Part shown: one piece after another, positions 1,475 to 23,801 of the stretch
Numbering within the stretch: position 1 is the first letter of the stretch
Layout of the letters: every line of letters begins with the position of its first letter
Assembly (NCBI GenBank): GCA_047651235.1
Contig: CP178758.1
Span: 904,991 to 928,990, forward strand
DNA length: 24,000 nt
Source of the DNA: Candidatus Electrothrix yaqonensis
GTDB lineage: Bacteria; Desulfobacterota; Desulfobulbia; Desulfobulbales; Desulfobulbaceae
Direction of reading: 5' to 3'
Notes under the pieces: model-generated
Databases searched by the model: none
What the model was told of the DNA's origin: nothing
What the model saw: the letters and a program-made list of their open reading frames with translations, nothing else
Program-made: the position numbers and the translations under genes

Positions 1475-2221
1475 TAAGAGCTTGTATTTTCAAGACGTAT
1501 GCAGTAATTGATACAGAAGAACTTTACACGAGGATTCTGCATGCTGTTTTTTTGCTGAACACAATCAAAGATCATCGACGCGGGCAGGGCCGGCGATATG
1601 AGCTTACGCATATTACGCATATTCTTCTGTTTTCGATCATGGCGATCCTAAGCGGTTCGGATTCTTATCGCAAAATCCATCTGTTCGTTGATGCGCATCG
1701 TGAAAGGCTCAATGAATATTTCGGCCTGGACTGGAAAAAAGCTCCTGCATATACAACGATCCGCACTGTCATTCTGAACACTTCCGGTTCGGAACTTGAG
1801 CGGATTTTCAGGGAGCACGGCAAAGCTCTCGCGGAAGAGGAACCGGACGGAGAATTTATTCATTGCGACGGCAAAACTCTCCGGGGAAGTTTCGATAACA
1901 TGAAGGATATTAATCAGCTTCAGATATTGAGCGCTTTTGCCGGCGACCGCGCCGTCGTTCTCGGCCATGAAGAAATCAAGGAGAAAAGCAATGAAATCCC
2001 GGCGGCGCGGAAACTGATGAAAGAACTCGGTTTATCCGACCGCATTTGACCGCTCCCGAATTCGTTGCAATCCGCACATATTTGCAAAACTGAGGAGCTT
2101 TGCTCTCAATATTCTTCGTAAGAACAAGGTGAAAGATGTCAGCCGGGAGCTTTTCAGGAACTGTATGGATATACATCGTCTGTTTGATTACGCCGGGATT
2201 TTTTAGAATTGAACAGCCCTG
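1457..2221 (+). mobile_element. ISAs1-family insertion sequence, internally deleted non-autonomous copy (765 bp)
   Basis: The terminal inverted repeats are perfect 18-mers. IRL 1457-1474 is cagggctgttcaattcta. IRR 2204-2221 is tagaattgaacagccctg, its exact reverse complement. The element is flanked by an identical 10-bp direct repeat, aagggagaga, at 1447-1456 and 2222-2231. Internally it holds only the N-terminal and C-terminal pieces of an ISAs1/H-repeat type transposase. Confidence 0.85.
1552..2206 (+). pseudogene. ISAs1-family (DDE_Tnp_ISAs1 / H-repeat-associated) transposase remnant with the catalytic core deleted
   Basis: The 1552-2049 frame (TTG start) gives MLNTIKDHRRGQGRRYELTHITHILLFSIMAILSGSDSYRKIHLF...IPAARKLMKELGLSDRI*, which is typical of the N-terminal third of ISAs1 transposases. 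A different frame (about 2042-2206) reads AFDRSRIRCNPHIFAKLRSFALNILRKNKVKDVSRELFRNCMDIHRLFDYAGIF*. That matches the conserved ISAs1 C-terminal tail (EDxSRIR....LRxxALNLL). The two pieces abut near 2040-2050, so several hundred bp encoding the DDE core are missing. Confidence 0.8.
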
Positions 2222-2310: not shown

Positions 2311-3498
2311 TCATTTTTTATTCGGGGTTCTGATGTCAAACCTCGGTGCCTGCAGCATCCGACTGATCTGCGCCTTCAGGTCAGCCAGATCAGGATTGAC
2401 GCTGTCCTGCTCGGCAATCAGGGCGCAGAGGCGTTCCTGTTCCACCGGATGGATATATTCCGGCGGCGTGCCGTCCTGCAGCTGGATATGGGCCGCCCAG
2501 GGGACAAAGTAGGTGGTGGCCGGGCAGTCTTGGTGTTCTGAGATATCCAGGTTCAATCCGGCAACGTACAGCAGATTTCTGCCCTTATATTCCGTGCCCC
2601 GGCGGATGGATTCCACGGCCCGGGCGAACTCCAGCTGAATATTTATCTTGGCGGCCCGCAGCGGCGGATTTTTCGAGGTAACAATGATGGGCATAAATTC
2701 AATCAGATTGCGCTCCAGCAGGATAGAATCGTCGGTTTCATGAAAATCCTCCCGGAAATAAAATAGATCCTCAGTGAGATAATCACCGATGCTCTCTCCG
2801 GCCCCGCTCTTCCAGGTATATCCGGCCCCGTCAAGACGCCTGCGGAAGCTCTCGGATACCTCGTAGGTCTGACTGGTGCTGACCGCCCCGACCGGCTGAA
2901 TATTGCCGTTTTCATCCGGCGTGACAATGCGTTCCAGATGCACGACTAGACCGTTCACAACCGGATGGGAGGCAAAATCGATAAGGGAATTTTTTACCGT
3001 GATCAGATGGCGGCCCCGGTCGTCCCGATGCAGGAATATCCGCTGCCTGGCAAACTCATACTGCTTCAGATACGGCGTGATCACATGGGTTATTTTTCCG
3101 CAGGACGGCGTGATGCAGATGCCGTCCCTCTTGGGCCGGGTGCAGGTGCCGTAGATATCGGTCCGGGGATCATAGCCCACATGGCTTGCCTGGACAATCA
3201 CGAAATCTTCCCCGTGATTGGCATGGGGACCGTGACGGTCAATGGCGACGATTCCTCCCACCTGCCCGTGGTCAAACGGAAAGGTATCAAAATGCTTGGT
3301 CAGCAGAATGATGGGCCAGCCCTGATTTTCGTCCGAGCAGAAAGCTCTGGAGGGCATGATCCTGCCTTTGCGGAACCCCAAGGTCATACAGAGATTATAG
3401 AGCTTGGGCACAAATTCAGCATAGGGAATTGCAAAGCCGTCTACCCTGAACGGAGCCAACCGGCGGATAATTTTTGACTGGAGATAAGTATGCTGCAT
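2311..3498 (-). CDS. Conserved hypothetical 395-aa cytoplasmic protein with a Cys/Gly/His-rich N-terminal half; possibly LCIB / theta-carbonic-anhydrase-like (CGHR domain). The family assignment is tentative.
   Basis: A long ORF with a good SD (AAGGAA 5 nt upstream of the ATG at 3498) and no signal peptide or TM helix. Candidate metal ligands are AFC54SDENQG, HGPHANHGEDF, VIVQASH106VGYD and TRPKRDGICITPSC133GKITH. The C-x-D-E ... (A/F)(S/P)H(V/I) ... RP.R......CG pattern and spacing resemble what I remember of the Cys-His-Cys zinc site in algal LCIB. That comparison is from memory and is not a search result. The confidence value refers to the region being coding; my confidence in the family is about 0.35. 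Confidence 0.75.
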   Translation of the reverse strand: MQHTYLQSKIIRRLAPFRVDGFAIPYAEFVPKLYNLCMTLGFRKGRIMPSRAFCSDENQGWPIILLTKHFDTFPFDHGQVGGIVAIDRHGPHANHGEDFVIVQASHVGYDPRTDIYGTCTRPKRDGICITPSCGKITHVITPYLKQYEFARQRIFLHRDDRGRHLITVKNSLIDFASHPVVNGLVVHLERIVTPDENGNIQPVGAVSTSQTYEVSESFRRRLDGAGYTWKSGAGESIGDYLTEDLFYFREDFHETDDSILLERNLIEFMPIIVTSKNPPLRAAKINIQLEFARAVESIRRGTEYKGRNLLYVAGLNLDISEHQDCPATTYFVPWAAHIQLQDGTPPEYIHPVEQERLCALIAEQDSVNPDLADLKAQISRMLQAPRFDIRTPNKK

Positions 3499-3554
3499 TT
3501 CCTTACTTTCTTTTTTCTTGGAAACAGAACGAGGAACTTACGGAACGAAACATT

Positions 3555-3582
3555 CTAAAAAAATCAACTCAACTCTGTTGAG
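3555..3582 (-). terminator. Weak intrinsic terminator-like hairpin downstream of cbiQ
   Basis: The minus strand reads ctcaac-aga-gttgag (3582-3568) followed by ttgattttttt. The stem is only 6 bp with a 3-nt loop, so any termination would be partial at best. Confidence 0.25.
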
Positions 3583-3643
3583 AGTAGCATCATCTTTTTC
3601 TGATGCACAGAGAAAAAGGGGCGTCAGACAGAACATTTCAACT

Positions 3644-4393
3644 TCAAACCACCTCAATCACCATCAGCCCCGCTCCGGCCACCAGCAACCCGACCAGCAG
3701 CAGCACATCCCGCTGCTGCATCTTTCCTGTTGTATACAAAGAGTGAAACTGGCCGGAAAACCCGCGCAGCTCCATTGCCTGCTGTACCCGTTCGGCCCGG
3801 TTCCAGCTCCGCACCAGCAGCATCCCCAACATGGAACTGTAGCTCCGATAGGTGTGCAGATTGGTCTGCGGCCGGAAGCAACGCAATTCTGCGGCCCGCT
3901 GCAGGCGTTGCAGCTCCTCGTAGATCAGAGCTATGTAGCGGTAGGAAAACAGGAGGAGCAGGCAGATCTTCGGTGAAACCCGCAGAGTCTGCAGGGCATG
4001 ACCAAGCTGAGCTGCACTGGACGTGGCAAGCAGGCTGATAAACACCAGCAGTACCGCATTGGATTTGATCGTGATCAGAATAGCCATGGAGAGTCCTGCG
4101 CGGCTCAGATCGATGCCAGCAATCTCCAGCACGAGTCCGCCGTAGGTCAGAGGCAGAACCAGGAGGAGCAGGAGATTGAAGGTGTTGACGACAAGAATTC
4201 TGCGGAGAACTATTTTCCAGGGCAGGCGGGCTGCGGCCACCAGAACAAGGGCGAGCAGCAGCCCGATAAGGGCGGTGCTGAGATTACGGCACAGGGCGAT
4301 AATCAGACTGAGCAGCCCGGCGCTGATCAGCTTGCCGCGCGGGTCTGCCCGGTGCAGAAGTGAGGCCCCGCGACTGAACTGTTCAAAGGTCAT
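3644..4393 (-). CDS. cbiQ: ECF transporter transmembrane (T) component, CbiQ/NikQ type
   Basis: A polytopic membrane protein (MTFEQFSRGASLLHRADPRGKLISAGLLSLIIAL... RAAELRCFRP ... ELRGF) typical of CbiQ/EcfT. I prefer the ATG at 4393, which is preceded by AGGAAG, over the GTG at 4408 used in the ORF track. The gene lies in a cbiM-containing cluster. Confidence 0.85.
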   Translation of the reverse strand: MTFEQFSRGASLLHRADPRGKLISAGLLSLIIALCRNLSTALIGLLLALVLVAAARLPWKIVLRRILVVNTFNLLLLLVLPLTYGGLVLEIAGIDLSRAGLSMAILITIKSNAVLLVFISLLATSSAAQLGHALQTLRVSPKICLLLLFSYRYIALIYEELQRLQRAAELRCFRPQTNLHTYRSYSSMLGMLLVRSWNRAERVQQAMELRGFSGQFHSLYTTGKMQQRDVLLLVGLLVAGAGLMVIEVV

Positions 4394-4441
4394 ACGGCTT
4401 CCTACCACAACTGCACCGGCAGGTTCAACAGAAATAATTCA

Positions 4442-5209
4442 TTATTTATAGGCATCCAGGTAGGTCCAGAGCACAGCACCGAGCTCCACGCCCTTTTCGT
4501 TGCCTTCCGGATCCTTGATGGTATAATCGGCCTCATTCAGCGCGGAAAAACCCCACCATCCCGGCTGGGGACAGGCAAAGGTAAATACGCCGTTTTCATC
4601 GGCCTTGACCACCTGGGTGACATGATAGTCGCTGGGTGCGGTGAATTTCTTGTCCTTGTTATAGAGCTCCACTTCCACTTCCGCACCCGGAACCGGCTTG
4701 CTGTTCAACAGCACCTGACCGCTGAAGCTGTTGCCTGCATAGTTGCCGAAAGGACGGGTCAGGGGCACGATCTCCGTGGCAACGCCGATCGGCTTATCCC
4801 AGCCCTGGTCATCACCGAAGGCGGCAATCATGGTTTTTGTGTAATGGATGATATGGAGATCTTCGGCCGGTTCCCAGTACGGGGTCGGCTCCATAACAAA
4901 GGTATACACGCCGGGACGCTTGATGGGTATTTCTGCTGTCCAAGCAGTATGATCCATTACTTTGGCTTCCTTGAGAGCCGGAACCAGATTGGTCTTCTGT
5001 CCGCCTGCAACCATGAAGAACTCTTTCGGTTTGGCCAGATCCATGCCGATGATCTCAAAGGGATGCGAAAAGGAGAGGTCCAGCTTGACGCTCTTCTTTT
5101 TCGGGGTGAGGATGTTGTCCGAGGGAATGATCATGCCGAAATGGGCAAAGGCTTCGCCGGTCAGGCAGGCAAGAAATACTGCGGCCAAGGAAACTGCACG
5201 AATCTTCAT
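4442..5209 (-). CDS. Periplasmic DUF4198-family protein (COG5266 'CbiK' / NikK-like accessory component of Ni/Co ECF uptake systems)
   Basis: It has a Sec signal peptide (MKIRAVSLAAVFLACLTGEAFA|HFGMIIPS), so the mature N-terminus begins with His. This is followed by a beta-rich soluble domain. There is a strong SD (AAGGAG). The gene sits between the nikL-like gene and cbiQ. Confidence 0.75.
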   Translation of the reverse strand: MKIRAVSLAAVFLACLTGEAFAHFGMIIPSDNILTPKKKSVKLDLSFSHPFEIIGMDLAKPKEFFMVAGGQKTNLVPALKEAKVMDHTAWTAEIPIKRPGVYTFVMEPTPYWEPAEDLHIIHYTKTMIAAFGDDQGWDKPIGVATEIVPLTRPFGNYAGNSFSGQVLLNSKPVPGAEVEVELYNKDKKFTAPSDYHVTQVVKADENGVFTFACPQPGWWGFSALNEADYTIKDPEGNEKGVELGAVLWTYLDAYK

Positions 5210-5306
5210 CTTGTGTTACTCCTTTTTTTAGAGGGATAAAAACGAACTGCTCCCCGGCACATCCGGAAGAGCACATCATACACATACACGGAACAGAGAG
5301 CAGCGC

Positions 5307-5957
5307 TCAGGTCTGCCCTGCTTTTTGCTTTTTTCTGGAACGCAGCCAGGCAAACAGCCCGGCCAGCCCGATGATGCAGCCGATGCCGCCGAGAATATCC
5401 TGCGGAGCGATTTTTCTTTGCTGCTCTTCTGCCAAGGCCTGGCGGACAGGAGCCAGCTGCCGGTTTACTTCCTCACGCACAATACGGCGTATCTGCGCTT
5501 CATCCGGGCCTGCGGTTACCGGCTGTGTCCTGCCGCCGGATCCTGCAGTAGAAGATTTCGCAGGATGGTCTGCTGCAGCCGAGGAGGCAACAAGGTACTC
5601 CTCGGCTGCTAGCGGCCATTCGGCACGATGTCCGTCCCCAGCATCGGCAATGATCAGCAGGTCAGGCTGCTTTTCCACTGTCTGTGCAGGCGGAGAAAAC
5701 TGAAACTTGCCCTGTCCGTCCGTGCGGGTTGTCAGCAGGACGGCTCCTGACGCGGCATCCTCTACCGTGACTGTAATGTTTTTAGCGCCCCGTCCGCCGC
5801 TGAATTTAGCTTCGCCGTAGATTAGCTGGTCTTCTGCCCAGGCGAAAACATTCATTTTATGGGCCGAAGCCAGCAGCGGTGCCAGCAGGAGCACCAGCAG
5901 AATAGCGGGCCGGAAGATTGTCAGAATGCGCAGGTTCATGCGTACTTCTTCATGCAT
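5307..5957 (-). CDS. NikL-like bitopic accessory protein: signal peptide, a transthyretin/carboxypeptidase-regulatory-like periplasmic domain and a C-terminal TM anchor
   Basis: The sequence reads MNLRILTIFRPAILLVLLLAPLLASA|HKMNVFAWAE..., then VTVEDAASGAVLLTTRTDGQGKFQF, with a C-terminal helix ILGGIGCIIGLAGLFAWL followed by RSRKKQK. The start is ambiguous. The ATG at 5957 overlaps the cbiM stop, and the ATG at 5939 (MNLRIL) gives a cleaner signal peptide. Its position directly after cbiM, in place of cbiN, matches the nickel-type Nik(M)(L)(K)Q arrangement described from comparative genomics. Confidence 0.6.
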   Translation of the reverse strand: MHEEVRMNLRILTIFRPAILLVLLLAPLLASAHKMNVFAWAEDQLIYGEAKFSGGRGAKNITVTVEDAASGAVLLTTRTDGQGKFQFSPPAQTVEKQPDLLIIADAGDGHRAEWPLAAEEYLVASSAAADHPAKSSTAGSGGRTQPVTAGPDEAQIRRIVREEVNRQLAPVRQALAEEQQRKIAPQDILGGIGCIIGLAGLFAWLRSRKKQKAGQT

Positions 5958-6552
5958 ATTTCAGATGGAGAATTTCCGGCTGTACCCTGGCAATGAAGCT
6001 GACCGTGAACATGGTGACACAGCCTTCAATGACCATAACAGGAAGATTGGCCGCAATAATGAGTTTGGCCGCCGCCAAGAAGCCGGTATCTGACAGGGCA
6101 AGAGCCGAGGCCGTGAGCAGTGAGGCCAGCAGGATGGCCAGCGCCCCTGCGCTAAAGGCGGCTGCAGGTCTTGTTTTCGGATCATCCAGCCAAGGGCGGG
6201 CCAGATAAAAACAGCAGACCGCCGGAATGGACATGGTTGCCGTGTTCACTCCGAGGACAGTCAGGCCGCCGAACTGAAAGAAAAGCGCCTGCAGAAACAG
6301 GCCGGTCAGAATGGCCGGGAACGCAGCCCAGCCCAACATGATGCCGAGCAGACCGATGAGCATCAGATGCGCTGATCCCGGCCCGATGGGCACATGCACA
6401 AGTCCGGCAACGAAAAAGGCCGAGGAGAGCATGGCAGCGGGCATGATCTCCTCCGGATCAATCTTCTTCAGCCCGATATATGTGCCGATTGCGCTGATTA
6501 CCCCGCCGCTGAGCAGGACTGGTGCAGCCAGAACTCCTTCTGAAATATGCAT
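5950..6552 (-). CDS. cbiM: ECF substrate-capture (S) component, CbiM/NikM
   Basis: MHISEGVLAAPVLLSGGVISAIG... carries the hallmark N-terminal Met-His-x-x-E-G of CbiM/NikM, where the N-terminal amine and His2 ligate the metal. It is a 200-aa polytopic membrane protein. Confidence 0.9.
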   Translation of the reverse strand: MHISEGVLAAPVLLSGGVISAIGTYIGLKKIDPEEIMPAAMLSSAFFVAGLVHVPIGPGSAHLMLIGLLGIMLGWAAFPAILTGLFLQALFFQFGGLTVLGVNTATMSIPAVCCFYLARPWLDDPKTRPAAAFSAGALAILLASLLTASALALSDTGFLAAAKLIIAANLPVMVIEGCVTMFTVSFIARVQPEILHLKYA

Positions 6553-7363: not shown

Positions 7364-7399
7364 AAAAAAAAGGCACAGAGCAGATGCCCTATGCCTTTT
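7364..7399 (-). terminator. Rho-independent terminator for the Cys-rich protein gene; it may also act weakly on the convergent ferredoxin gene
   Basis: The minus-strand RNA forms ggcauag...cugugcc (7395-7389 paired with 7378-7372, including one G-U pair) followed by U8 (7371-7364), 58 nt after the stop at 7454. On the plus strand the same stem has a C-A mismatch and only a 4-T tail. Confidence 0.6.
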
Positions 7400-7453: not shown

Positions 7454-8506
7454 TTACTGCTGGAAGCGCAGCCCTATGCCGAACCGTCCGTACTCCGAGA
7501 TGCTGTCCAGTTCATCGACCGCATTGCGGGCTTCCAAGAAGACAGAAATGTTGAAGTCGTCCGGATCGCCGTACACACGGGCCCCGATATTGGCCAGAAA
7601 ATCAATATCCGTGTCCTCCGAATCAGAGTCATCGTCTCCTGAGCTGATCCAGGTGCCGAGACCGATGCCCAGGAATCCGTCAAAGCTTTCAGACCAGTTG
7701 TACTGGGCAAAGAGATCGACCAGCAGGGCATCGTCGCCGTCAGAACCGCTCACTTTGGGCGCTGCACCGACTAAAGCCAGGAAAGAGACATCTTCCAGCG
7801 AAGTATCGGTAAAGGGGCTGTACTCAACACCGAGCCGGGCAAAGAGATAATCTGCCGGATCCGAGAGCCGCAGATAACCAAGATCTCCTATAAAACGGAG
7901 AGCCTTCGACCCGCTACCCTCTCCGTCATCGGTGAAATCATCATCAGGAACAGGAGGTGCATCGGGATCAAGCAGACATTCTTCCGGGATACCCTGACAT
8001 CCTTCCGGACAGTCTTCAGCATCCTCAGCACCTGCTGCGCATGATTCCGGGCAGTCGGACGGAAATTTGTCGCAGATGTTGCATCCGAGTTCATCGCATA
8101 CAGGCGGGCAGTCTTTCCCGTCCGGATTCTCAATGCATGCAACAGAACAGTCATCGCAGGTGTAACAGCTTATATCTCTGCAGATATCCGGGCAGGTTTC
8201 ACCGAAAGGATTTTTTTTGCAGGCAGCCGTGCAGTCACTGCAGGACTGACAGGCTACATCTCTGCAGATATCCGGACATCCCTTGCCGTAAGGATTTTTT
8301 TTGCATGCCTCCGAACACTCGTTACAGGATGCCTGACATTCCGGATCAGCGCAGATCGGCGGACAGCCCTTGGCATAAGGATTTTCCAGGCATTCATCTG
8401 AACAGTCGTCGCAGGTCAGCGCTCTGCCTCCGGCAGAGGCGATACCGGCTGACAGCAGGATAAAGACAGCCGTCTGTGCCAATACTTTCAGTTTCATGGT
8501 TTTCAC
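7454..8506 (-). CDS. Secreted cysteine-rich tandem-repeat protein with an acidic C-terminal domain predicted to be an 8-strand outer-membrane beta-barrel; function unknown
   Basis: It has a Sec signal peptide (MKTMKLKVLAQTAVFILLSAGIASA) with no twin arginine. Residues 32-177 contain 30 Cys arranged in five 25-36-aa modules, e.g. CQSCSDCTAACKKNPFGETCPDICRDIS. Residues about 201-350 show eight alternating hydrophobic/hydrophilic stretches: ALRFIGDLGYLRL, YLFARLGVEYS, VSFLALVGAAP, LLVDLFAQYNW, FLGIGLGTWIS, IDFLANIGARVY, FNISVFLEARN and YGRFGIGLRFQQ. These are separated by Asp/Ser-rich loops. The gene has its own promoter and terminator candidates. Confidence 0.85.
   Translation of the reverse strand: MKTMKLKVLAQTAVFILLSAGIASAGGRALTCDDCSDECLENPYAKGCPPICADPECQASCNECSEACKKNPYGKGCPDICRDVACQSCSDCTAACKKNPFGETCPDICRDISCYTCDDCSVACIENPDGKDCPPVCDELGCNICDKFPSDCPESCAAGAEDAEDCPEGCQGIPEECLLDPDAPPVPDDDFTDDGEGSGSKALRFIGDLGYLRLSDPADYLFARLGVEYSPFTDTSLEDVSFLALVGAAPKVSGSDGDDALLVDLFAQYNWSESFDGFLGIGLGTWISSGDDDSDSEDTDIDFLANIGARVYGDPDDFNISVFLEARNAVDELDSISEYGRFGIGLRFQQ
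8084..8413 (-). repeat. In-frame tandem coding repeats (84-87-bp period) encoding the Cys modules
   Basis: The plus-strand 18-mer atctctgcagatatccgg occurs at 8174-8191 and again at 8258-8275. The 16-mer aaggattttttttgca occurs at 8206-8221 and again at 8290-8305. Both pairs are offset by 84 bp. A more diverged copy lies 87 bp further on. Confidence 0.85.
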
Positions 8507-8610
8507 TCTCCTTTTTCTCTGAAGTTCATCTCATTGCCCGCAGTCATCACCAGCGGGCCGTATTCTGTTTTAAACATTTCCGGGTGAACGGTAAAATTTT
8601 TTATACTCTT

Positions 8611-8639
8611 TTTATATAAGCTCTCTTGTCATCTGGCAA
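8611..8639 (-). promoter_or_regulatory. Candidate sigma70 promoter for the Cys-rich protein gene (TTGCCA-N17-TATAAA)
   Basis: On the minus strand, TTGCCA is at 8639-8634, followed by a 17-nt spacer and TATAAA at 8616-8611, about 105 nt upstream of the ATG at 8506. Confidence 0.4.
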
Positions 8640-8768
8640 GATAAAAAAAGAGCAGGAAGGAAGACAGGAGGACAATTTTCTTCCACAGTACTTTGAGATA
8701 TGCCTCGCCTGTGTAAAGCTTGTAAAAAAAAATCTGCTGTAGTCCTTCTTTGCCGGGAGCTCTTGATC

Positions 8769-13260: not shown

Positions 13261-13426
13261 GGCGTCCGGTTTCAACGCAACCGGAAAATTGTCAATCACC
13301 TGTCGCCATTTTCCGCAGGTATTACATTCTCATTCCTTACTCCTCTGATTTCGATTGACGAACAGCTCTCTTTCTGCTTTTCTGTAAGCTCAATTGCCTT
13401 CAGCCCCGACTTTGCAAAAACATACG

Positions 13427-16400
13427 ATGCGCAATTTTTTTATTCGCCTCCCCTTGCGCCTGATCCTCGGCGTTGCCTGCATTTTTCTGCTTTTTTTGGG
13501 GTGCAGCTTTCTCTTTTCACCTGCGCCGTCGGATACCGAAGCCCAATCTTCCCCTGACCTGGAAATACAGAAAGCGGTACAAAAAGTGGAGCTGGCTGTG
13601 CTCAAAGATCAGTCCATTGATCCTGATAAAATCATGCGCGTACAGGTGGAAGTGGACTACGATGAGGGAGAGGAGGGAGCATGGTATCCCAAGGCGGAAT
13701 CGCCGGTTCTGACGCCGCTGGTGGAAAAAGGAAAACTCCCTCCGGTGGCTGAGCGGGTCGGGGAAGAACCGCTGGTGCTCAAGGGTCTGCATGGCGCTGC
13801 CGAGTACGGCGGCAGCATGTACCGGCTGAACAGTGTCCCGGCCCCGCGCCTCACCCCGATCAATCTGGTGCGCTTCAGTCCGCAGGGCTTTCCCATTGTT
13901 CCCAATGTCGCCAAAAGCTGGACCATCAGCAAGGACGGTCGCCGCTTTACCTTTAGCCTGCGCAAGGGCATGAAATGGAGTGACGGGCAGCCCTTTACTT
14001 CAGAGGATATCCTGTATTGGTGGCGGCACGAACAATGCGATAAAAGCGTCAGTCCCGGCGGCCCTGCGCCGCTGTATGTCCATCACGGCAAACCCATGAC
14101 CGTGACTGCCCCTGATCCGCAGACCATTATTTTTTCCTTTGCAGATCCCTATTTCACCTTTCTGGAGAAACTCGCCGCTTCACCGGGGTATTACAATGCA
14201 TCGCCGCGCCATTTCCTGCAGTCCTATCATCCTGAACTGGGCGATCCGCACCTCATCCTGGATGTCATGCAGACCCATAACTTGGTCAATAAACGGGCTG
14301 TGTACGCGATGGTCAGCAACCGGGTTGAGCGCCCCAGCATCGGCCCCTGGATCACGCGGACGGAGAAGATGAGCTCACCGGAGACCATGGTGCGCAACCC
14401 CTATTACTGGGCCGTAGATACCGAGGGGCGGCAGCTTCCCTATATAGATCGCATCGTGATAACGGAAAAGTCCAAGGATATGGTGGGGATTTCAGCTGCC
14501 CAGGGCGAGGTGACTGTGCAGGCGCGCTCTATCCGGAATGAAGAGTACACCATGCTGATGCGGCAGCGGCAGACCTACGGCTACCAGGTACATCATTGGG
14601 TGCAGGGAAAGGGCAGCGCCTGGGCTATGGCCTTCAACCTGAACCGCAGGATTCCCGAAGGAGACCGGGAAGCGGCCCATAAAGCCAAACTGCTGGCTGA
14701 TAAACGCTTTCGCCAGGCCCTCTCCCTTGCCGTGGATCGGCAGACCATTATTCAGGCCCTGTTCGGCGGTGAGGGGGAACCCCATGCTGTGGGCCCGCCG
14801 CCGACCTCCCCGTTCTATTTTCCGGAACTGCAGCAGACCTACAGCCGCTTTGACCCGGCAAAGGCAAATGCATTATTCGATGCCCTCGGCCTGATCGAGC
14901 GCGACAGGGATGGTTTCCGCCGTTTTCCCGACGGTCCGTCCCTGCTTTTTGATATCAACTACTGCTCCTTTACCGGCGAAGGTCCCGGACAGTTCATTGT
15001 CGAGGACTGGCGCCGGGTCGGTATCCGGGCGCGGATGCGTTCCCAGGACCGCTCAATTTTTTATGTCGAAAAACTGGCCGGGCTGCACGATATCACGGTC
15101 TGGCGGGGCTACGGAGCCTATTTTCCCATCCTTGACCTGCGCTATTATGCTCCGCTGAATTCGGAATCCAACTTTGCCATCCGTTACGGCTCCTGGTATG
15201 CTTCGGGCGGTTTGTTCAAGGAAGACGGGACTGTGCGCGGCACACCGCCACCCAAGGATCATCCCCTGTATCAGGCCCTCCTCCTGAATGAGCAGATCAA
15301 AGAGGCCCCCACTTCTGCCGAACGCCGCGCCCTGTTCGGCGAGCTGCTCAAACTGGCTGCCGAGAATGTCTATATTCTGGACATTACCACGCCACTTCCA
15401 GCTCTGGCCGTGGTGAAAAACGGGGTCAAAAATGTGCCGATCAAGGGGGTGTATTCTTGGTCCTTCCAAAGCCCGGCCAATCTGGGCCTGGAGACCTGGT
15501 GTTACGCAGAACCCAAAATGAGCGCAGCTGAGATCCGGGATATTACCTCTGAGCTCAGCCATATCACGCCGGTGCGCCCGCTCCACAGTACCGGGGTGCA
15601 GAAGCCCTCTGCTTCTGCCGTTACAGCCCCGGCATCTGAGCCTGCTGCTTCCCTTGTCGGGACGCTGATCCGTTACGGTATCGGGCTGGCCCTGCTCCTT
15701 CAGCTGATCCTGCTTATCTTCCGCTTTCCCTTTGTCGGCTATCGGCTGCTGATTATGATCCCGACCCTGATCCTGATCTCCGTCATCACCTTTGTGGTGA
15801 TCGAGCTGCCGCCCGGCGATGCGATCAGCAGCAAGATCATGCAGATGCAGGAAGCAGGCGGTGAGGTCAACCAGAAGGAGATTGATGAAATGAAGGCCCT
15901 GTTCCGCATCGACGAATCGGCCTGGCATCGCTATGCCTGGTGGATGGGACTGGACTGGTTTGCCAGCCGAGAAGGCAGGGATGAGGGCCTGCTGCAGGGG
16001 AATATGGGGCGCTCCATGATGGACCTCAAACCGGTGAACGACAAAGTCGACGACCGACTGCTTTTCACCATTCTGATCTCCCTGGGCACGATCCTCTTCA
16101 CCTGGGCGATGGCCCTGCCCATCGGTATCTACTCGGCAGTGCGCCAGTATTCGTTTTTTGATTACTTTTTTACCGTGATTGGATTCATCGGCATGTGCAT
16201 TCCCGGGTTCCTGCTCGCCCTGCTTCTGATGTTTGCTGCCGAATCTTGGCTCGGGATCAGCGTGTCCGGGCTGTTTTCCCCGGAATATGCCGTTCAGAGC
16301 GGCTGGAGTCAGGGCAAGATTCTGGACCTGCTGCGCCATATCTGGCTCCCCATTTTTGTGCAGGGCGTGGCCGGGACCGCCGGGATGGTCCGGGTCATGC

Positions 16401-16756
16401 GGGCCAACCTGCTGGACGAGCTGCAGAAGCCCTATGTGATTACGGCGCGGGCCAAGGGCCTCCGGCCCATGAAGCTGCTTGTCAAATATCCCATCCGCCT
16501 TGCCCTCAACCCGTTTATCTCCGGGATCGGCAGCATTTTCCCGGAACTCATCTCCGGCGGGGCCATCATCGCCATTGTCCTGAGCCTGCCCACCATTGAG
16601 CCCATGCAGCTCAATGCGGTCATGCAGCAGGACATGTATCTGGCCGGTTCTATCCTCATGCTCCTGAGTCTGCTCAGCGTGCTCGGCACCCTGTTCAGCG
16701 ATATCATGCTCCTCCTCCTTGATCCGCGCATCCGCACTGCCGGAGGCTGGAAATGA
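13427..16756 (+). CDS. Fusion protein: family-5 (Opp/Dpp/Nik-type) substrate-binding protein, an extra TM helix and an ABC permease (DppB/OppB-type)
   Basis: It starts with the signal/anchor MRNFFIRLPLRLILGVACIFLLFLGCS, which may contain a lipobox (LGC). SBP_bac_5-like motifs follow (VAKSWTISKDGRRFTFSLRKGMKWSDGQPFTSEDILYWW, NPYYWAVD). Next come a Pro/Ser/Ala linker and a hydrophobic helix, LVGTLIRYGIGLALLLQLILLIF (about 15653-15721). A canonical permease N-terminus then begins (FVGYRLLIMIPTLILISVITFVVIELPPGD), and the EAA loop is present (ITARAKGLRPMKLLVKYPIRLALNP). The frame is continuous throughout. I prefer the ATG at 13427 over the TTG at 13394. Confidence 0.85.
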   Translation: MRNFFIRLPLRLILGVACIFLLFLGCSFLFSPAPSDTEAQSSPDLEIQKAVQKVELAVLKDQSIDPDKIMRVQVEVDYDEGEEGAWYPKAESPVLTPLVEKGKLPPVAERVGEEPLVLKGLHGAAEYGGSMYRLNSVPAPRLTPINLVRFSPQGFPIVPNVAKSWTISKDGRRFTFSLRKGMKWSDGQPFTSEDILYWWRHEQCDKSVSPGGPAPLYVHHGKPMTVTAPDPQTIIFSFADPYFTFLEKLAASPGYYNASPRHFLQSYHPELGDPHLILDVMQTHNLVNKRAVYAMVSNRVERPSIGPWITRTEKMSSPETMVRNPYYWAVDTEGRQLPYIDRIVITEKSKDMVGISAAQGEVTVQARSIRNEEYTMLMRQRQTYGYQVHHWVQGKGSAWAMAFNLNRRIPEGDREAAHKAKLLADKRFRQALSLAVDRQTIIQALFGGEGEPHAVGPPPTSPFYFPELQQTYSRFDPAKANALFDALGLIERDRDGFRRFPDGPSLLFDINYCSFTGEGPGQFIVEDWRRVGIRARMRSQDRSIFYVEKLAGLHDITVWRGYGAYFPILDLRYYAPLNSESNFAIRYGSWYASGGLFKEDGTVRGTPPPKDHPLYQALLLNEQIKEAPTSAERRALFGELLKLAAENVYILDITTPLPALAVVKNGVKNVPIKGVYSWSFQSPANLGLETWCYAEPKMSAAEIRDITSELSHITPVRPLHSTGVQKPSASAVTAPASEPAASLVGTLIRYGIGLALLLQLILLIFRFPFVGYRLLIMIPTLILISVITFVVIELPPGDAISSKIMQMQEAGGEVNQKEIDEMKALFRIDESAWHRYAWWMGLDWFASREGRDEGLLQGNMGRSMMDLKPVNDKVDDRLLFTILISLGTILFTWAMALPIGIYSAVRQYSFFDYFFTVIGFIGMCIPGFLLALLLMFAAESWLGISVSGLFSPEYAVQSGWSQGKILDLLRHIWLPIFVQGVAGTAGMVRVMRANLLDELQKPYVITARAKGLRPMKLLVKYPIRLALNPFISGIGSIFPELISGGAIIAIVLSLPTIEPMQLNAVMQQDMYLAGSILMLLSLLSVLGTLFSDIMLLLLDPRIRTAGGWK

Positions 16757-17850
16757 ACAGGAACAAGGACATCGCCTCCCTGAGCCAGTGGCAGCTCATT
16801 GCCTTGCGCTTCAACCGGCACCGGCTGGCCACGGTCGCCCTGCTCCTGATCGGGGGGCTGTATACCTTAGCGTTTTTTGCCGACAGCTTTGCCGTCAACA
16901 CCCCCTATGATAAAGACGTGCGGTACATTTACGCGCCGCCCATGCTGCCCAAGTTCAGCCTGGAGCAGGGATTCTACGCAAATGCCTCTATCCAGCAGAC
17001 CGATCCTGTTACCCTGAGAAGGTCATATCAGTTCACCCCGGACACCTCTGTACCGTTAGGCTTTTTTGTCAAAGGTTATACATATAAATTGCTGGGCCTG
17101 ATTCCGACAGATATCCATTTTTTGGGGGTCCGCCAGAGAGGAGCAGATGCACCGAAATTCCTCCTTTTCGGCGGCGATAAATTCGGTCGGGATATCTTCA
17201 GCAGAATCCTGCTCGGCACCCGGATTTCTCTGTCCATCGGCGTGGCCGCCATTGTGATTTCCTTTGTCCTGGGCGTGAGCATCGGCGGCATGTCCGGCTA
17301 TTTCGGGGGCTGGACCGACACCCTGATTCAACGCCTGATCGAGGTGATTGATGCCTTTCCCAAGCTGCCCCTCTGGCTCTCCTTGGGAGCTGCTCTGCCC
17401 CGAAACTGGTCCAATCTTCAAGTCTATTTCGGCATCACTATCATCCTCTCGCTGGTGGGCTGGACCGGCATGGCCCGGGTTGTGCGTGGAAAAATTCTCA
17501 GCCTGCGGGAGGAGGATTACGCCTTGGCGGCCCGCCTGATGGGCGCCGGGCACAGCCGGATCATCTTCCGCCATCTTGTGCCCGGCTTTACCAGCCATAT
17601 CATCGTCTCGCTGACCATGACCGTGCCGGGAATGATCCTGGGCGAAACCAGCCTGTCTTTTCTCGGCCTGGGCCTGAAGCCGCCCATCATTAGCTGGGGC
17701 GTGATGCTCCAGGACTGCATGAGTATGCAGGTGGTGAAGAATTATCCTTGGCTGCTTCTGCCGGTGCTCATGATTATCCTGACCGTGCTCTGCTTCAACT
17801 TCATCGGCGACGGCCTCCGCGATGCCGCTGATCCTTATACTGCAAGCTGA
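16753..17850 (+). CDS. ABC transporter permease (DppC/OppC-type)
   Basis: It has an OppC-like N-terminal region and the membrane domain GGDKFGRDIFSRILLGTRISL...ARLMGAGHSRIIFRHLVPG. The ATGA overlaps the upstream stop codon. Confidence 0.9.
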   Translation: MNRNKDIASLSQWQLIALRFNRHRLATVALLLIGGLYTLAFFADSFAVNTPYDKDVRYIYAPPMLPKFSLEQGFYANASIQQTDPVTLRRSYQFTPDTSVPLGFFVKGYTYKLLGLIPTDIHFLGVRQRGADAPKFLLFGGDKFGRDIFSRILLGTRISLSIGVAAIVISFVLGVSIGGMSGYFGGWTDTLIQRLIEVIDAFPKLPLWLSLGAALPRNWSNLQVYFGITIILSLVGWTGMARVVRGKILSLREEDYALAARLMGAGHSRIIFRHLVPGFTSHIIVSLTMTVPGMILGETSLSFLGLGLKPPIISWGVMLQDCMSMQVVKNYPWLLLPVLMIILTVLCFNFIGDGLRDAADPYTAS

Positions 17851-17864
17851 CTGCGAGATCGTCT

Positions 17865-18878
17865 ATGTCGGAAAATGTTCTGGAAATAAAAAACCTGCGG
17901 GTTGCCTTCCGCTTGGAAGAAGGCGAGATCCATGCTGTGCAGGATGTCTCGCTCGCCATCCCGCGCGGTAAGATTGTCGCCCTGGTCGGTGAATCAGGCT
18001 GCGGCAAGAGTGTCACCGGTCTCTCCATTCTCCGCCTGATTCAGCGGCCCGGTGAAATCACCGGCGGCGAGATGCTTTTCAACGGTCAGGACGGCAGAAG
18101 CGTTGATATTGCCCGGCTGAGAGAGAAGGACAAGGAGCTGTACTCCCTTCGCGGTAATCGGATTTCGATGATTTTTCAGGAGCCCATGACCGCGCTTTCG
18201 CCGGTGCATACCATCGGCAACCAGCTCTGTGAGGTTCTGCTTCTCCACCGGAAGGTGCGCAAAAGACAGGCGGAAAGAAAGGCCATGATGATGTTGGGGC
18301 GGGTCGGTTTTCCTGCCCCGGAACGGAGCCTCCGGCAGTATCCTTTTGAGCTGTCCGGCGGAATGCGCCAGCGGGTGGTGATCGCTATGGCCCTGCTGGC
18401 GGAACCGGAACTGCTGATCGCCGATGAGCCGACCACTGCCCTTGATGTGACCATCCAAGCGCAGATTCTGGCCCTGATGCATCGGCTCCAGCGGGAGGAA
18501 GGCAATTCCGTCCTCCTTATCACCCATGACCTCGGCGTGGTGGCCCAGGTCGCTGATGCAGTGGCGGTCATGTACCTTGGCCGCATCGTTGAAAAAGGCC
18601 CCATGCGCGACATCATGCAGTCGCCCCTGCACCCCTACACCCAGGGGCTGCTCCAATCCCTGCCTGGTCTGCACTTGGAGCATAAACGCCTTCCCGCCAT
18701 CAAAGGAACCGTGCCGGGCCTGAACGAGCTGCCCGAGGGCTGCCCGTTTCATCCCCGCTGTCCGCATTGCACAGCCGGTCTTTGTGACGGCCAGGCTGTG
18801 CCGTCTCCTGAAGCCTTTGGCCCGGAACGGGAAGCAGCCTGTTTCCGCATCAACAAACTGCAGGGAGTGCCGATATGA
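17865..18878 (+). CDS. ABC transporter ATP-binding protein (DppD/OppD-type)
   Basis: Walker A is GESGCGKS, the signature is LSGGMRQRV and Walker B is LLIADEPTTALD. The oligopeptide-type C-terminal extension carries CPFHPRCPHCTAGLC. Confidence 0.9.
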   Translation: MSENVLEIKNLRVAFRLEEGEIHAVQDVSLAIPRGKIVALVGESGCGKSVTGLSILRLIQRPGEITGGEMLFNGQDGRSVDIARLREKDKELYSLRGNRISMIFQEPMTALSPVHTIGNQLCEVLLLHRKVRKRQAERKAMMMLGRVGFPAPERSLRQYPFELSGGMRQRVVIAMALLAEPELLIADEPTTALDVTIQAQILALMHRLQREEGNSVLLITHDLGVVAQVADAVAVMYLGRIVEKGPMRDIMQSPLHPYTQGLLQSLPGLHLEHKRLPAIKGTVPGLNELPEGCPFHPRCPHCTAGLCDGQAVPSPEAFGPEREAACFRINKLQGVPI

Positions 18879-19882
18879 GCCTCCCTCTGCTCAGGGTCAG
18901 GAACCTGAAAAAATATTTCCCCGTCTGCAGCAAAGGCTTCTTCAAAAGGCGGCTGGGCATAGTCAGGGCCGTGAACAAGATCAGCTTCACCCTCGATGCC
19001 AAGGAAACCCTTGGACTGGTCGGTGAGTCAGGCTGCGGAAAAACCACCACAGCGCGCACCATCCTGCGGGCCGTCACGCCGACCGAAGGAAACATTTTCT
19101 TTGACCACAGTGGCACAGGTGAAGCTGTTGATCTAGCCGGTCTGCGCGAAGCCGGGCTGAAGCCGCTCCGCCAGCATATGCAGATGATTTTCCAGGATCC
19201 CTTCAGCTCGCTTAACCCGCGCATGACTGTGGGGCAGATTATTGCCGAGCCCATGCGGATCCATAAATTGGCTAAAGGGAGTGAGCTTGACGACCGGGTT
19301 GAGGCAATCCTGAAAAAGGTGGGGCTGAAACCGGAGCATAAGGCCCGCTATCCCCATGCCTTCAGCGGCGGCCAACGGCAGCGTATCGGCATTGCCCGGG
19401 CGCTCATCATGGAGCCTGCCTTAGTGGTTGCCGATGAGGCTGTTTCAGCCCTTGATGTTTCGGTCCAGGCCCAGGTTATCAACCTGCTGGACGACCTGCA
19501 GGATGAGTTCGGAGTGGCCTACCTCTTTATTGCCCATGACCTGGGCGTGGTCCGCCATATCTGCGACCGGGTCGCGGTCATGTACGCCGGACGGATCGTC
19601 GAGATGGCCCGGACCAAAGACCTCTTCAATAATCCCCTGCATCCCTACACGCAACTGCTGCTGGCCTCGGTGCCCAGTCCTGATCCGGACGTCATAATGA
19701 AGATGGAAGAGTTCAGCGAAGTTGCCTATACCGGCAACCTGCCTTTCGGCTGCGCATTTCAGCCCCGCTGCGGACAATGCTCGGACGGCTGCCAGAGCGG
19801 CATTCCTGAGCTACTTGAAGTGGAAGCAGGGCATTTTGTGGCCTGTCTGTTGCGCAGGGGCAGCAAGGTATCCGGCAGATAG
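18875..19882 (+). CDS. ABC transporter ATP-binding protein (DppF/OppF-type)
   Basis: Walker A is GESGCGKT, the signature is FSGGQRQRI and Walker B is LVVADEAVSALD. The C-terminal extension carries CAFQPRCGQCSDGC. The ATGA overlaps the upstream gene. Confidence 0.9.
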   Translation: MSLPLLRVRNLKKYFPVCSKGFFKRRLGIVRAVNKISFTLDAKETLGLVGESGCGKTTTARTILRAVTPTEGNIFFDHSGTGEAVDLAGLREAGLKPLRQHMQMIFQDPFSSLNPRMTVGQIIAEPMRIHKLAKGSELDDRVEAILKKVGLKPEHKARYPHAFSGGQRQRIGIARALIMEPALVVADEAVSALDVSVQAQVINLLDDLQDEFGVAYLFIAHDLGVVRHICDRVAVMYAGRIVEMARTKDLFNNPLHPYTQLLLASVPSPDPDVIMKMEEFSEVAYTGNLPFGCAFQPRCGQCSDGCQSGIPELLEVEAGHFVACLLRRGSKVSGR

Positions 19883-22912: not shown

Positions 22913-22989
22913 CGGAACGTAGCGCAGTCTGGTAGCGCACCTGAATGGGGTTCAGGGGGTCGGAGGTTCAAATCCTCTCGTTCCGACCA
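22913..22989 (+). tRNA. tRNA-Pro (anticodon GGG), CCA encoded
   Basis: The sequence folds by hand into a cloverleaf. The acceptor is CGGAACG/CGTTCCG, the D arm is GCGC-AGTCTGGTA-GCGC, and the anticodon arm is CCTGA-ATGGGGT-TCAGG with U33, GGG at 34-36 and G37. The T arm is GGAGG-TTCAAAT-CCTCT, followed by ACCA. It is nearly identical in its arms to the E. coli proL tRNA as I remember it. Confidence 0.95.
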
Positions 22990-23459: not shown

Positions 23460-23801
23460 CTACGGCAGCTCTTCACGTTCAAGAAGCCGGTTGACCGCCT
23501 CTTTCAGCGCAGGCAAATCCTGTTCCACCGTCATCCAGACTTCGGCCATGTCCACGCCGTCATACTGATGAATGAGCACATCCCGGAAGCCTGCAATCTC
23601 TTTCCAGGGGATATGCGGCACAAGTTGGCGGACTTCTTCGGAAATGCGTTTAGCAGCTTCGCCGATAATCTCAAAATTGCGGATAACCGCATCCTGTGTT
23701 TTGCCGTCCGCTGAAAATGTGGATTCCCCGTCCCCGGTGTATTCCTCTATCTTTTCGATGCACTCCCGGATATGGATGAGATACAGCCGTTGATCCTTCA
23801 T
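23460..23801 (-). CDS. hepT: HepT-family (DUF86, HEPN) toxin of a type VII toxin-antitoxin pair
   Basis: A 113-aa protein with the R-x4-H-x-Y HEPN motif (FRDVLIHQY). Its ATG overlaps the stop of the upstream nucleotidyltransferase gene (ATGA). Confidence 0.85.
   Translation of the reverse strand: MKDQRLYLIHIRECIEKIEEYTGDGESTFSADGKTQDAVIRNFEIIGEAAKRISEEVRQLVPHIPWKEIAGFRDVLIHQYDGVDMAEVWMTVEQDLPALKEAVNRLLEREELP

Follow-up and report, generated by a model that had tools for sequence, protein, structure and literature searches.

Which proteins build, anchor or load the conductors of cable bacteria, none of which had been identified as of papers dated 2025-2026? These bacteria conduct over centimetres through periplasmic fibres that run in ridges directly beneath the outer membrane, and their conductive network combines nickel and sulfur (a Ni/S entity) within the fibres with copper and sulfur (a Cu/S entity) within the cartwheels at the junctions, the constituent proteins not being identified (PMC13534509). 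When periplasmic metalloproteins were searched for specifically, nothing but cytochromes and one binding protein of the NikA type was returned, and searches by known nickel-binding signatures gave only transporters and enzymes (PMC11976967). Here, we describe a gene for a Cys-rich outer-membrane protein in a 24,000-nucleotide stretch of DNA (the window) from Candidatus (Ca.) Electrothrix yaqonensis YB6, a clonal cable-bacterium culture described under this name (PMC12093952). The gene corresponds to an open reading frame (ORF) of 350 codons on the minus strand (7454-8506), and its product is 100% identical to the hypothetical protein ACL93V_04225 of Candidatus Electrothrix sp. YB6. We consider this protein worth attention because its host is a cable bacterium and because it appears to be restricted to that host. 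Among the papers found by full-text searches of the library used here, none describes this protein or mentions a Cys-rich outer-membrane protein.

Our work gives good support to the idea of a protein that is exported by Sec, anchored by a barrel, rich in Cys, specific for cable bacteria and strongly selected. The best reading of its function, to which we give a probability of about 0.4, is that of a tether that relies on thiols or disulfides and links the outer membrane to the Ni/S-Cu/S conductive network of the periplasm; the functional link to the conductive apparatus is circumstantial.

Architecture of the Cys-rich protein

A first-pass annotation of this DNA had placed the gene at 7454-8506. 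The reading frame is confirmed, but on the minus strand, and the start had to be moved: The GTG codon at 8506 proposed by the ORF lister overlaps the ribosome-binding site AAGGAGAG and was rejected in favour of the ATG at 8497 (M4, MKLKVL), for which the context from the ribosome-binding site to the ATG is conserved in nine Electrothrix species, and which is also the start of the 347-residue protein called by NCBI. Residues are numbered here in the 350-codon frame starting at 8506, with the true start at M4. The putative sigma-70 promoter upstream, a consensus match only that the sequence scan did not list, lies in a block that is nearly invariant across the nine Electrothrix species (TATA(A/T)A); indeed, the promoter and the leader of about 105 nt between it and the ATG (8498-8650, minus strand) are almost invariant throughout. 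This leader can be folded into predicted hairpins, albeit without covariation. A long conserved leader is reminiscent of the mRNAs for abundant outer-membrane proteins, e. g. ompA. Since the gene is followed by its own terminator, it forms a separate transcription unit, and the block of promoter and ribosome-binding site that is conserved in nine species together with this terminator suggests that the gene is likely to be expressed. The ratio of nonsynonymous to synonymous substitution rates (dN/dS) is 0.05-0.10 in the Cys domain and the barrel alike; for the least saturated pair the two values are 0.07 and 0.07 at a dS of 0.4-0.6. As judged from these comparisons, the protein is real and purifying selection on it is strong. 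Two antisense ORFs (7476-7850, plus strand, 124 residues; 7957-8463, plus strand, 168 residues) were taken as shadows of a frame rich in Cys and Asp codons and dismissed because it is the minus-strand frame that is conserved and selected. Known RNAs and riboswitches were not found in the window except for one tRNA.

The protein starts with a Sec-type signal peptide that, as read from the sequence, contains neither an RR pair nor a lipobox Cys and that is conserved across all orthologues; this supports the initial assignment to the Sec pathway. The mature part opens with a domain that contains 30 Cys at residues 32-177, i. e. 20.5% of these 146 residues, very close to the 20% estimated initially. 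Although the 24 orthologues compared are only 55-75% identical overall, none of the 30 Cys varies among them. It had been proposed that these residues form five tandem six-Cys modules. This number holds, but the phase of the repeat had to be corrected: The unit C-x2-C-x3-C-x8-C-x3-C-x4-C spans 26 residues (consensus tCdDCsxeC(l/k)xNPyxkgCPdiCxdxxC), and it is present in four canonical copies and one stretched copy, a phasing that gives exactly 5 x 6 = 30 Cys. The spacing of the fifth module is conserved in the orthologues (gap string ...263936), and other orthologues carry extra free-standing modules of the same phase after a spacer of 10-29 residues. Pairs of modules have 6-11 of 20 non-Cys positions in common, which puts the repeat far above chance, and an 84-bp period is detected in the DNA that encodes them.

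Structure prediction and similarity searches place this domain outside the families described so far. Modelled alone with AlphaFold2, it reaches a predicted local distance difference test (pLDDT) value of 82.6 and a predicted template-modelling score of 0.60, with only one-turn helices, which are located at the Cys positions. The domain has a net charge of -23, has few Lys and Arg, contains three Tyr and two Phe, and is devoid of His, Met and Trp. No Pfam family was matched at E<=1, including the metallothionein, metallochaperone and zf-Tim10_DDP models, and no NCBIfam family either; against the PDB, the sequence profile gave one chance match (E=0.19) and Foldseek gave no match at E<=10. This agrees with the initial statement that no named family could be recognised. 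As the spacing is symmetric (x3 opposite x3; x2 or x6 opposite x4 or x6), we infer a three-rung hairpin: The spacing suggests that each module is made of three rungs of paired Cys (C3-C4, C2-C5, C1-C6) with a core like that of the twin-CX3C proteins, and the domain would then be a rod of five such hairpin modules. Twin-CX3C hairpins, as in the small Tim proteins, contain either two disulfides or occur in a reduced, Zn-bound form. The motif alone is therefore compatible with the disulfide and with the metal-bound state, and the sequence and fold data of the Cys domain fit metal binding as well as disulfide knotting.

The first-pass annotation had also pointed to a ferredoxin-like CX2CX2CX3C spacing in modules 3 and 4 that lacks the canonical Pro. 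Such stretches do occur twice (from C86 and from C114), they are kept in all orthologues at both junctions, and the Pro after the fourth Cys is absent from both of them (0/2). They are, however, not placed within modules but span the junctions, each stretch being composed of the final Cys of a module and the three Cys with which the following module begins. Module junction 1 varies between x2, x3, x4 and x6 among the orthologues, and isolated modules lack CX2CX2CX3C. The Fer4 models gave no match, either with the whole protein at E<=10 or with the Cys domain at E<=1; the 61-residue ferredoxin encoded next to the gene matches 13 of these models. Moreover, the leader is of the Sec type and not of the Tat type, and export of unfolded chains by Sec is incompatible with the known ways of Fe-S insertion; we know of no Fe-S assembly in the periplasm. 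Finally, Fe is not enriched in the skeletons of the conductive fibres (PMC13534509). That the protein is ferredoxin-like, with CX2CX2CX3C binding [4Fe-4S] and relaying electrons beneath the outer membrane, is therefore extremely improbable in spite of the two conserved stretches. With no Fer4 match, no CP, a spacing that arises at the junctions, a Sec leader and no Fe in the fibres, we regard this idea as refuted.

The C-terminal 150 residues are predicted to form an eight-strand outer-membrane beta-barrel. The AlphaFold2 model, which was calculated from an alignment of 35 sequences, has a mean pLDDT of 81 over the protein; in the barrel region (residues 203-349) the values are about 86-97 in most blocks, and the last loop contains one helix. 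The top matches of a Foldseek search against the PDB are all small outer-membrane barrels: the transmembrane domain of OmpA, OprF, NspA, OmpX, OmpW and PagL (entries 1bxw, 4rlc, 1qjp, 1p4t, 2f1v, 2m06 and 2erv), with E from 1e-5 to 1e-3, a probability of 1.0 and target TM-scores of 0.5-0.68. In strands 2-8, hydrophobic faces alternate with polar (or Gly) faces. The Pfam model OMP_b-brl (PF13505) scores 13.8 bits (E=0.068, residues 190-311), i. e. below its cut-off of 28.7 bits, and the barrel has no match in NCBIfam. The predicted strands and the structural matches thus bear out the OmpX-like eight-strand barrel proposed initially, with the Pfam match staying below threshold, and on the basis of the model the protein belongs to the fold class of the eight-strand outer-membrane barrels but not to OMP_b-brl as curated. 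Two further features that had been pointed out, the GIGLRFQQ ending and the strongly acidic loops, are present as described. The beta-signal of such barrels ends in an aromatic residue; the YB6 protein has Phe at -3 but Gln at -1, and of the 35 family members in the alignment, 26 terminate with F or Y. Every connecting loop is acidic, and the loop SGDDDSDSEDTD, which is predicted to face outward, carries the invariant residues D298, D300 and D302. In the family as a whole, few regions are as well conserved as the predicted outward loops at residues 289-299 and 330-340 (about 7610-7642 and 7487-7519), including the DELD helix. Such conservation is atypical, as the surface loops of outer-membrane proteins are usually variable, and a role in the binding of cations or of a partner is possible.

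In outer-membrane barrels with an even number of strands, both termini are on the periplasmic side. By this standard topology, the Cys domain would reside in the periplasm, tethered beneath the outer membrane, just as suggested by the earlier annotation. Between the two parts lies an acidic, flexible linker; its length varies among the orthologues, and in some of them it is occupied by an extra Cys module.

Distribution, origin and gene neighbourhood

The family is small. Its profile yielded only 108 matches among 1.84 billion representative proteins, and the profile of the Cys domain gave 22 matches among 5.8 billion proteins, all of them from the same orthogroup; with the Cys domain as a single query, a word-indexed search returned only 2 candidates. 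In a scan of GTDB with one genome per species, full-length copies were found in Ca. Electrothrix (laxa, aarhusensis, gigas, marina and further bins), in Ca. Electronema (aureum GS, halotolerans, nielsenii, JC, PJ, JM, TJ and KV) and in three metagenome-assembled genomes of the Desulfobulbaceae, and none outside these groups; the sulfide-oxidising relative Desulfurivibrio had no match. Judging from these searches, none of the lineages of cable bacteria that were found, in either genus, is without a full-length orthologue, and these orthologues appear to be restricted to cable bacteria.

The barrel has a wider distribution than the Cys modules. Desulfogranum japonicum, Desulfosediminicola flagellatus and Desulforhopalus, all Desulfobulbales that are not cable bacteria, encode proteins with a homologous barrel but with about seven Cys in all. 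The N-terminal part of these proteins is a head of about 130 residues (G.HPF..PPL...WM.F...CGN.AL) that is followed by PKD-like or Pro-rich VPGPERIVEK spacers. The barrels are 52-57% identical to that of the YB6 protein (E from 1e-36 to 1e-52; e. g. D. japonicum, L037 5251-6438, and Desulforhopalus P0072), and D208, G210, Y211, R224, W286, D298, D302, E325, R327, R341 and R347 are invariant and common to the family. Neither the head nor the family made up of head, spacer and barrel has a match in Pfam, NCBIfam or the PDB. The head is missing from the YB6 protein and from all 24 orthologues; it is present in the non-cable relatives and also in cable-bacterial paralogues, which combine head, Cys modules and barrel and which have 19-52 Cys in the middle position. 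In three Electronema genomes, such a paralogue is located directly upstream of the orthologue as its tandem partner (L019 4473-7056; L021; L023). In the L019 pair, the two barrels are, by eye, far more alike than are orthologous barrels between the genera, suggesting gene conversion or a recent duplication. Among the full-length orthologues without a head, 24 of 25 have an even number of Cys in the middle domain (30, 34, 36 or 44). The simplest history would be that an older outer-membrane family of the Desulfobulbales, with head, PKD or Pro-rich spacer and barrel, had its spacer swapped for Cys modules in the cable lineage, and that one copy then lost its head, leaving the Cys rod as the sole periplasmic part.

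The neighbourhood of the gene differs between the two genera. In all 10 Electrothrix loci with enough sequence (10/10), the Cys-protein gene is followed by a ferredoxin gene (fd) and by nik(M)LK(Q), genes for an ECF-type nickel/cobalt uptake system. This order is kept in the gigas-type locus, which has only nikLK and has lost nikM and nikQ, as well as in loci with a rearranged upstream flank. In the paper that introduced the name NikMLKQ, "fd" and "hyp." are drawn beside nikMLKQ without discussion (PMC11247825). A divergently transcribed partner gene that is conserved upstream was considered and rejected, since the upstream neighbours differ between Electrothrix and Electronema and YB6 has neither of them: In eight Electronema loci (L003 7084-7722 and L006 3368-4003, both minus strand, L014, L017, L018, L019, L021 and L023) this neighbour encodes an orphan membrane protein resembling Sdh_cyt, the cytochrome-b-like subunit of succinate dehydrogenase/fumarate reductase, with no sdhAB genes near it in the eight loci and otherwise housekeeping genes; in seven Electrothrix species, but not in YB6, gigas and TB, it encodes an unrelated membrane protein of about 204 residues.

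The window contains several other features (see also Table 1). The nikM-nikL-nikK-nikQ cluster of YB6 has no adjacent nikO ATPase gene (2311-6552, minus strand); downstream of nikQ there are an ORF for 395 residues (2311-3498) with only a weak match to LCIB-like beta-carbonic anhydrases (E=0.0075) and a transposase-associated remnant (1552-2049, plus strand), in place of the HAD/pgp and nifJ genes of other Electrothrix species. At a distance of 5 kb from the Cys-protein gene, an Opp/Dpp/Nik-type ABC importer (13394-19882, plus strand) is encoded by genes for a 1120-residue fusion of a family-5 solute-binding protein with a permease, for an OppC-like permease and for two ATPases with oligo_HPY tails. 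This system may correspond to the 'Nik/Opp/Dpp' nickel importer that is specific for cable bacteria (PMC11247825), in which case two putative importers of Ni would be encoded in YB6 at less than 8 kb from the gene for the Cys-rich protein. The importer genes are not adjacent to the Cys-protein gene in other species, and the genes for the M16 peptidase, the SulP permease, the tRNA and the HepT-like protein are likewise unlinked to it there.

Table 1. Features of the window, ordered by their position relative to the Cys-protein gene
Feature	Position	Strand	Remarks
Putative sigma-70 promoter	8611-8650	-	T-tract, TTGCCA (8634-8639), 17-nt spacer, TATAAA (8611-8616)
Ribosome-binding site AAGGAGAG	8506-8513	-	8 nt upstream of ATG; invariant in nine Electrothrix species
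Coding sequence of Cys-rich outer-membrane protein	7454-8497	-	347 residues from ATG at 8497; stop codon 7454-7456
Sec-type signal peptide MKLKVLAQTAVFILLSAGIASA, cleavage before GG	8432-8497	-	Lys-rich n-region, hydrophobic core, ASA cleavage motif
Four canonical six-Cys modules	8081-8413	-	residues 32-57, 61-86, 89-114, 117-142; AlphaFold2 pLDDT 74-92
Fifth, stretched six-Cys module	7976-8074	-	C-x6-C-x3-C-x9-C-x3-C-x6-C, mirror-symmetric; residues 145-177
Acidic Pro-rich flexible linker LLDPDAPPVPDDDFTDDGEGSGS	7907-7975	-	net charge -8; pLDDT <50 at residues 184-199
Predicted eight-strand outer-membrane beta-barrel	7457-7906	-	residues 201-350
Predicted barrel strands (AlphaFold2)			residues 203-214, 218-229, 240-254, 260-271, 277-288, 300-313, 319-329, 341-349
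Intrinsic-terminator-like hairpin and T-run	7370-7390	-	64 nt past stop codon
2x[4Fe-4S] ferredoxin, 61 residues	7018-7203	+	Pfam Fer4; convergent with Cys-protein gene, divergent from nikM
nikM (CbiM)	5950-6552	-	Pfam; energy-coupling factor (ECF)-type nickel/cobalt uptake
nikL	5307-5957	-	Pfam; ECF-type nickel/cobalt uptake
nikK (DUF4198)	4442-5209	-	Pfam; ECF-type nickel/cobalt uptake
nikQ (CbiQ)	3644-4408	-	Pfam; ECF-type nickel/cobalt uptake
PreP-like M16 peptidase, 997 residues	8769-11762	-	directly upstream, same strand
SulP sulfate permease with STAS domain	21007-22710	+	
tRNA	22913-22986	+	
HepT-like toxin gene	23460-23801	-	

Possible roles in the envelope of cable bacteria

How could such a protein serve the conductive apparatus? 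The Sec leader directs the protein through the inner membrane, the last 150 residues form, in the model, an OmpA/OmpX-type barrel that would insert in the outer membrane, and the N-terminal Cys domain of about 150 residues would hang in the periplasm on its flexible acidic linker. Its thiols might then make it a tether or scaffold where the outer membrane meets the conductive apparatus, i. e. the Ni/S fibres under the ridges and the Cu/S spokes of the cartwheels, with material being held or nucleated via thiolate-metal or S-S bonds. In current descriptions, the sulfur-ligated Ni complex of the fibres consists of nickel bis(dithiolene)/Ni(ett) oligomers, and Cys S-S links have been modelled as their end-caps (PMC13534509; bioRxiv 10.1101/2025.10.10.681601). 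The resistance of the fibre sheath to sodium dodecyl sulfate (SDS) and ethylenediaminetetraacetate and its high sulfur content have been proposed to be caused by abundant protein disulfides (PMC8238962); the protein described here would contribute to this SDS-resistant and sulfur-rich nature. Thirty thiols per chain are the very chemistry that is invoked both for the end-capping of Ni-dithiolene and for the detergent resistance of the sheath.

Several observations weigh against such a tether. A search of the supplement of PMC13047784 for the locus tag was empty, and no expression data set ties the protein to the fibres. The protein lacks His altogether, which is unusual for proteins that handle Ni(II), and the PKD or Pro-rich spacers that homologues have in the same position argue for a purely structural role. 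The linkage to the nickel genes is suggestive, but it is limited to one genus, with 0 of 9 Electronema loci showing it, and it is not operonic: The gene and fd are transcribed towards each other, promoter and terminator are the gene's own, and its promoter and the fd-nikM intergenic region have no motif in common except for A/T runs. The linkage is possibly inherited gene order only. In addition, the protein could serve other novelties of the cable-bacterial envelope, such as the shared outer membrane, the ridges, the junctions, the sheaths or gliding. It is tempting to go further than the tether and to speculate that this protein and its head-bearing Cys-rich paralogues are the missing protein partner of the conductor, in which the Cys ladders end-cap, template or nucleate the Ni bis(dithiolene)/Ni(ett) nanoribbons or the Cu/S spokes via Cys-S bonds and also fasten the wires to the ridges of the outer membrane. 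We think this improbable; if true, a structural component of a metal-organic conductor of biological origin would for the first time have been defined genetically.

The alternative that deserves most thought is that the Cys modules are inert. They may be rigid units stapled by three intramolecular disulfides each, which replace the PKD or Pro-rich spacers that homologues hold between head and barrel and which serve the architecture of the envelope, e. g. as a stabiliser of the outer membrane or as a ruler for the width of the periplasm, without metal and without a direct role in conduction. The mirror-symmetric spacing suits a three-rung disulfide ladder, AlphaFold2 models the domain confidently without a cofactor, the periplasm is the site of Dsb-type oxidation, and the acidic and His-free composition is nearer to extracellular disulfide-rich modules than to Ni proteins. 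The even Cys counts of the orthologues fit as well, but this parity follows trivially from modules of six Cys. On the other hand, the head that a spacer would have to hold out has been lost in the orthogroup, and yet the Cys rod is strongly selected; the modules are confined to cable bacteria and have multiplied there, so that a single protein can contain up to 52 Cys; and much of the filament is in sulfidic, reducing sediment, where structural disulfides would be less secure. Taken together, we regard an inert spacer as a possible but rather unlikely explanation. A periplasmic buffer for soft metals that binds Ni(II) or Cu(I) reversibly and hands it off, supplying or buffering a very large need for nickel in the periplasm, as the partner of NikMLKQ at the outer membrane and perhaps with acidic loops that gather cations, seems unlikely to us. 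The precedent would be Csp1, a periplasmic, Cys-lined metal store for copper, itself a Tat-exported four-helix bundle, and the dense CxxC and CPxxC motifs, the loop with D298, D300 and D302, the constant proximity to the nickel genes in Electrothrix and the second importer near the gene in YB6 all fit this idea. Moreover, a cable-bacterium cell contains about 18 million Ni atoms, for which the route across the outer membrane is unresolved (PMC13534509; PMC11247825). What speaks against a metal buffer is the lack of the linkage in Electronema, the separate transcription unit without a common operator-like motif, the complete absence of His and of matches to metallothionein or metallochaperone models, and the occurrence of the same barrel without Cys modules in non-cable relatives; furthermore, eight-strand barrels have no proven ion channel.

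It is also conceivable that the 30 thiols are carriers of sulfane sulfur or polysulfide, bound as persulfides, while sulfide is oxidised in the periplasm, or that they buffer stress by sulfide or oxygen at the outer membrane. The host oxidises sulfide and has rhodaneses and polysulfide enzymes in its periplasm (PMC13047784), and the density of thiols in the periplasm would be very high. A fold or motif of the rhodanese, SoxYZ, Sud or DsrE type is absent from the protein, though, genes of sulfur metabolism are not linked to it in any locus examined, and sulfide-oxidising relatives such as Desulfurivibrio do without it. A sulfur carrier or thiol buffer is thus quite improbable.

Among these possibilities, we favour the tether to the conductive network. 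The gene is a concrete candidate for a protein that acts on the conductors, as it is clade-specific, universally kept, strongly selected and its product probably located where the fibres lie. Even if the protein were a mere structural tether, it would define a repeat domain of a new kind, rich in Cys, as well as a family of outer-membrane proteins not characterised so far, and it illustrates the remodelling of an existing envelope protein as cable bacteria arose.

Comparison with known systems

The protein combines a Cys-repeat domain that has not been classified previously with an architecture of a known kind, the small outer-membrane barrel with a periplasmic domain. With the small outer-membrane barrels (OmpA transmembrane domain, OprF N-domain, NspA, OmpX, OmpW, PagL) it has in common the eight antiparallel amphipathic strands and the signal peptide, but the identity is 10-20% only, its loops are unusually conserved and acidic, and the YB6 protein ends in Q. 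As compared to OmpA, the order of the domains is reversed, with the periplasmic domain at the N-terminus and the barrel at the C-terminus. The closest relatives, the head-spacer-barrel proteins of the Desulfobulbales, have the same barrel and the same type of signal peptide, whereas the protein studied here has no head and five six-Cys modules instead.

For the Cys domain, the likenesses are more distant. Every module contains a C2-x3-C3 and a C4-x3-C5 pair on predicted short helical turns that flank an eight-residue loop, resembling the twin-CX3C hairpins of the small Tim proteins and the plant alpha-hairpinins; however, it has a third Cys pair and, in the AlphaFold2 model, helices of one turn, it occurs in a tandem array in a bacterial periplasm, and there is no match to zf-Tim10_DDP. 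The very high Cys content (20%) and the lack of His and Trp in the Cys domain are reminiscent of metallothioneins and Csp1, but unlike the metallothioneins the domain is acidic (-23) rather than Lys-rich, it has a regular repeat and a confidently predicted fold, and it matches no model. With the bacterial 2x[4Fe-4S] ferredoxins it has only the CX2CX2CX3C stretches in common; it lacks the Fer4 match and the CP, and it is exported by Sec. What the protein may work like are the chlamydial proteins OmcA and OmcB. These Cys-rich proteins are located at the periplasmic side of the outer membrane, where disulfide cross-links turn them into a rigid, detergent-insoluble layer. There is no Pfam match to them at E<=1, and OmcA and OmcB have neither a barrel anchor nor the 26-residue module.

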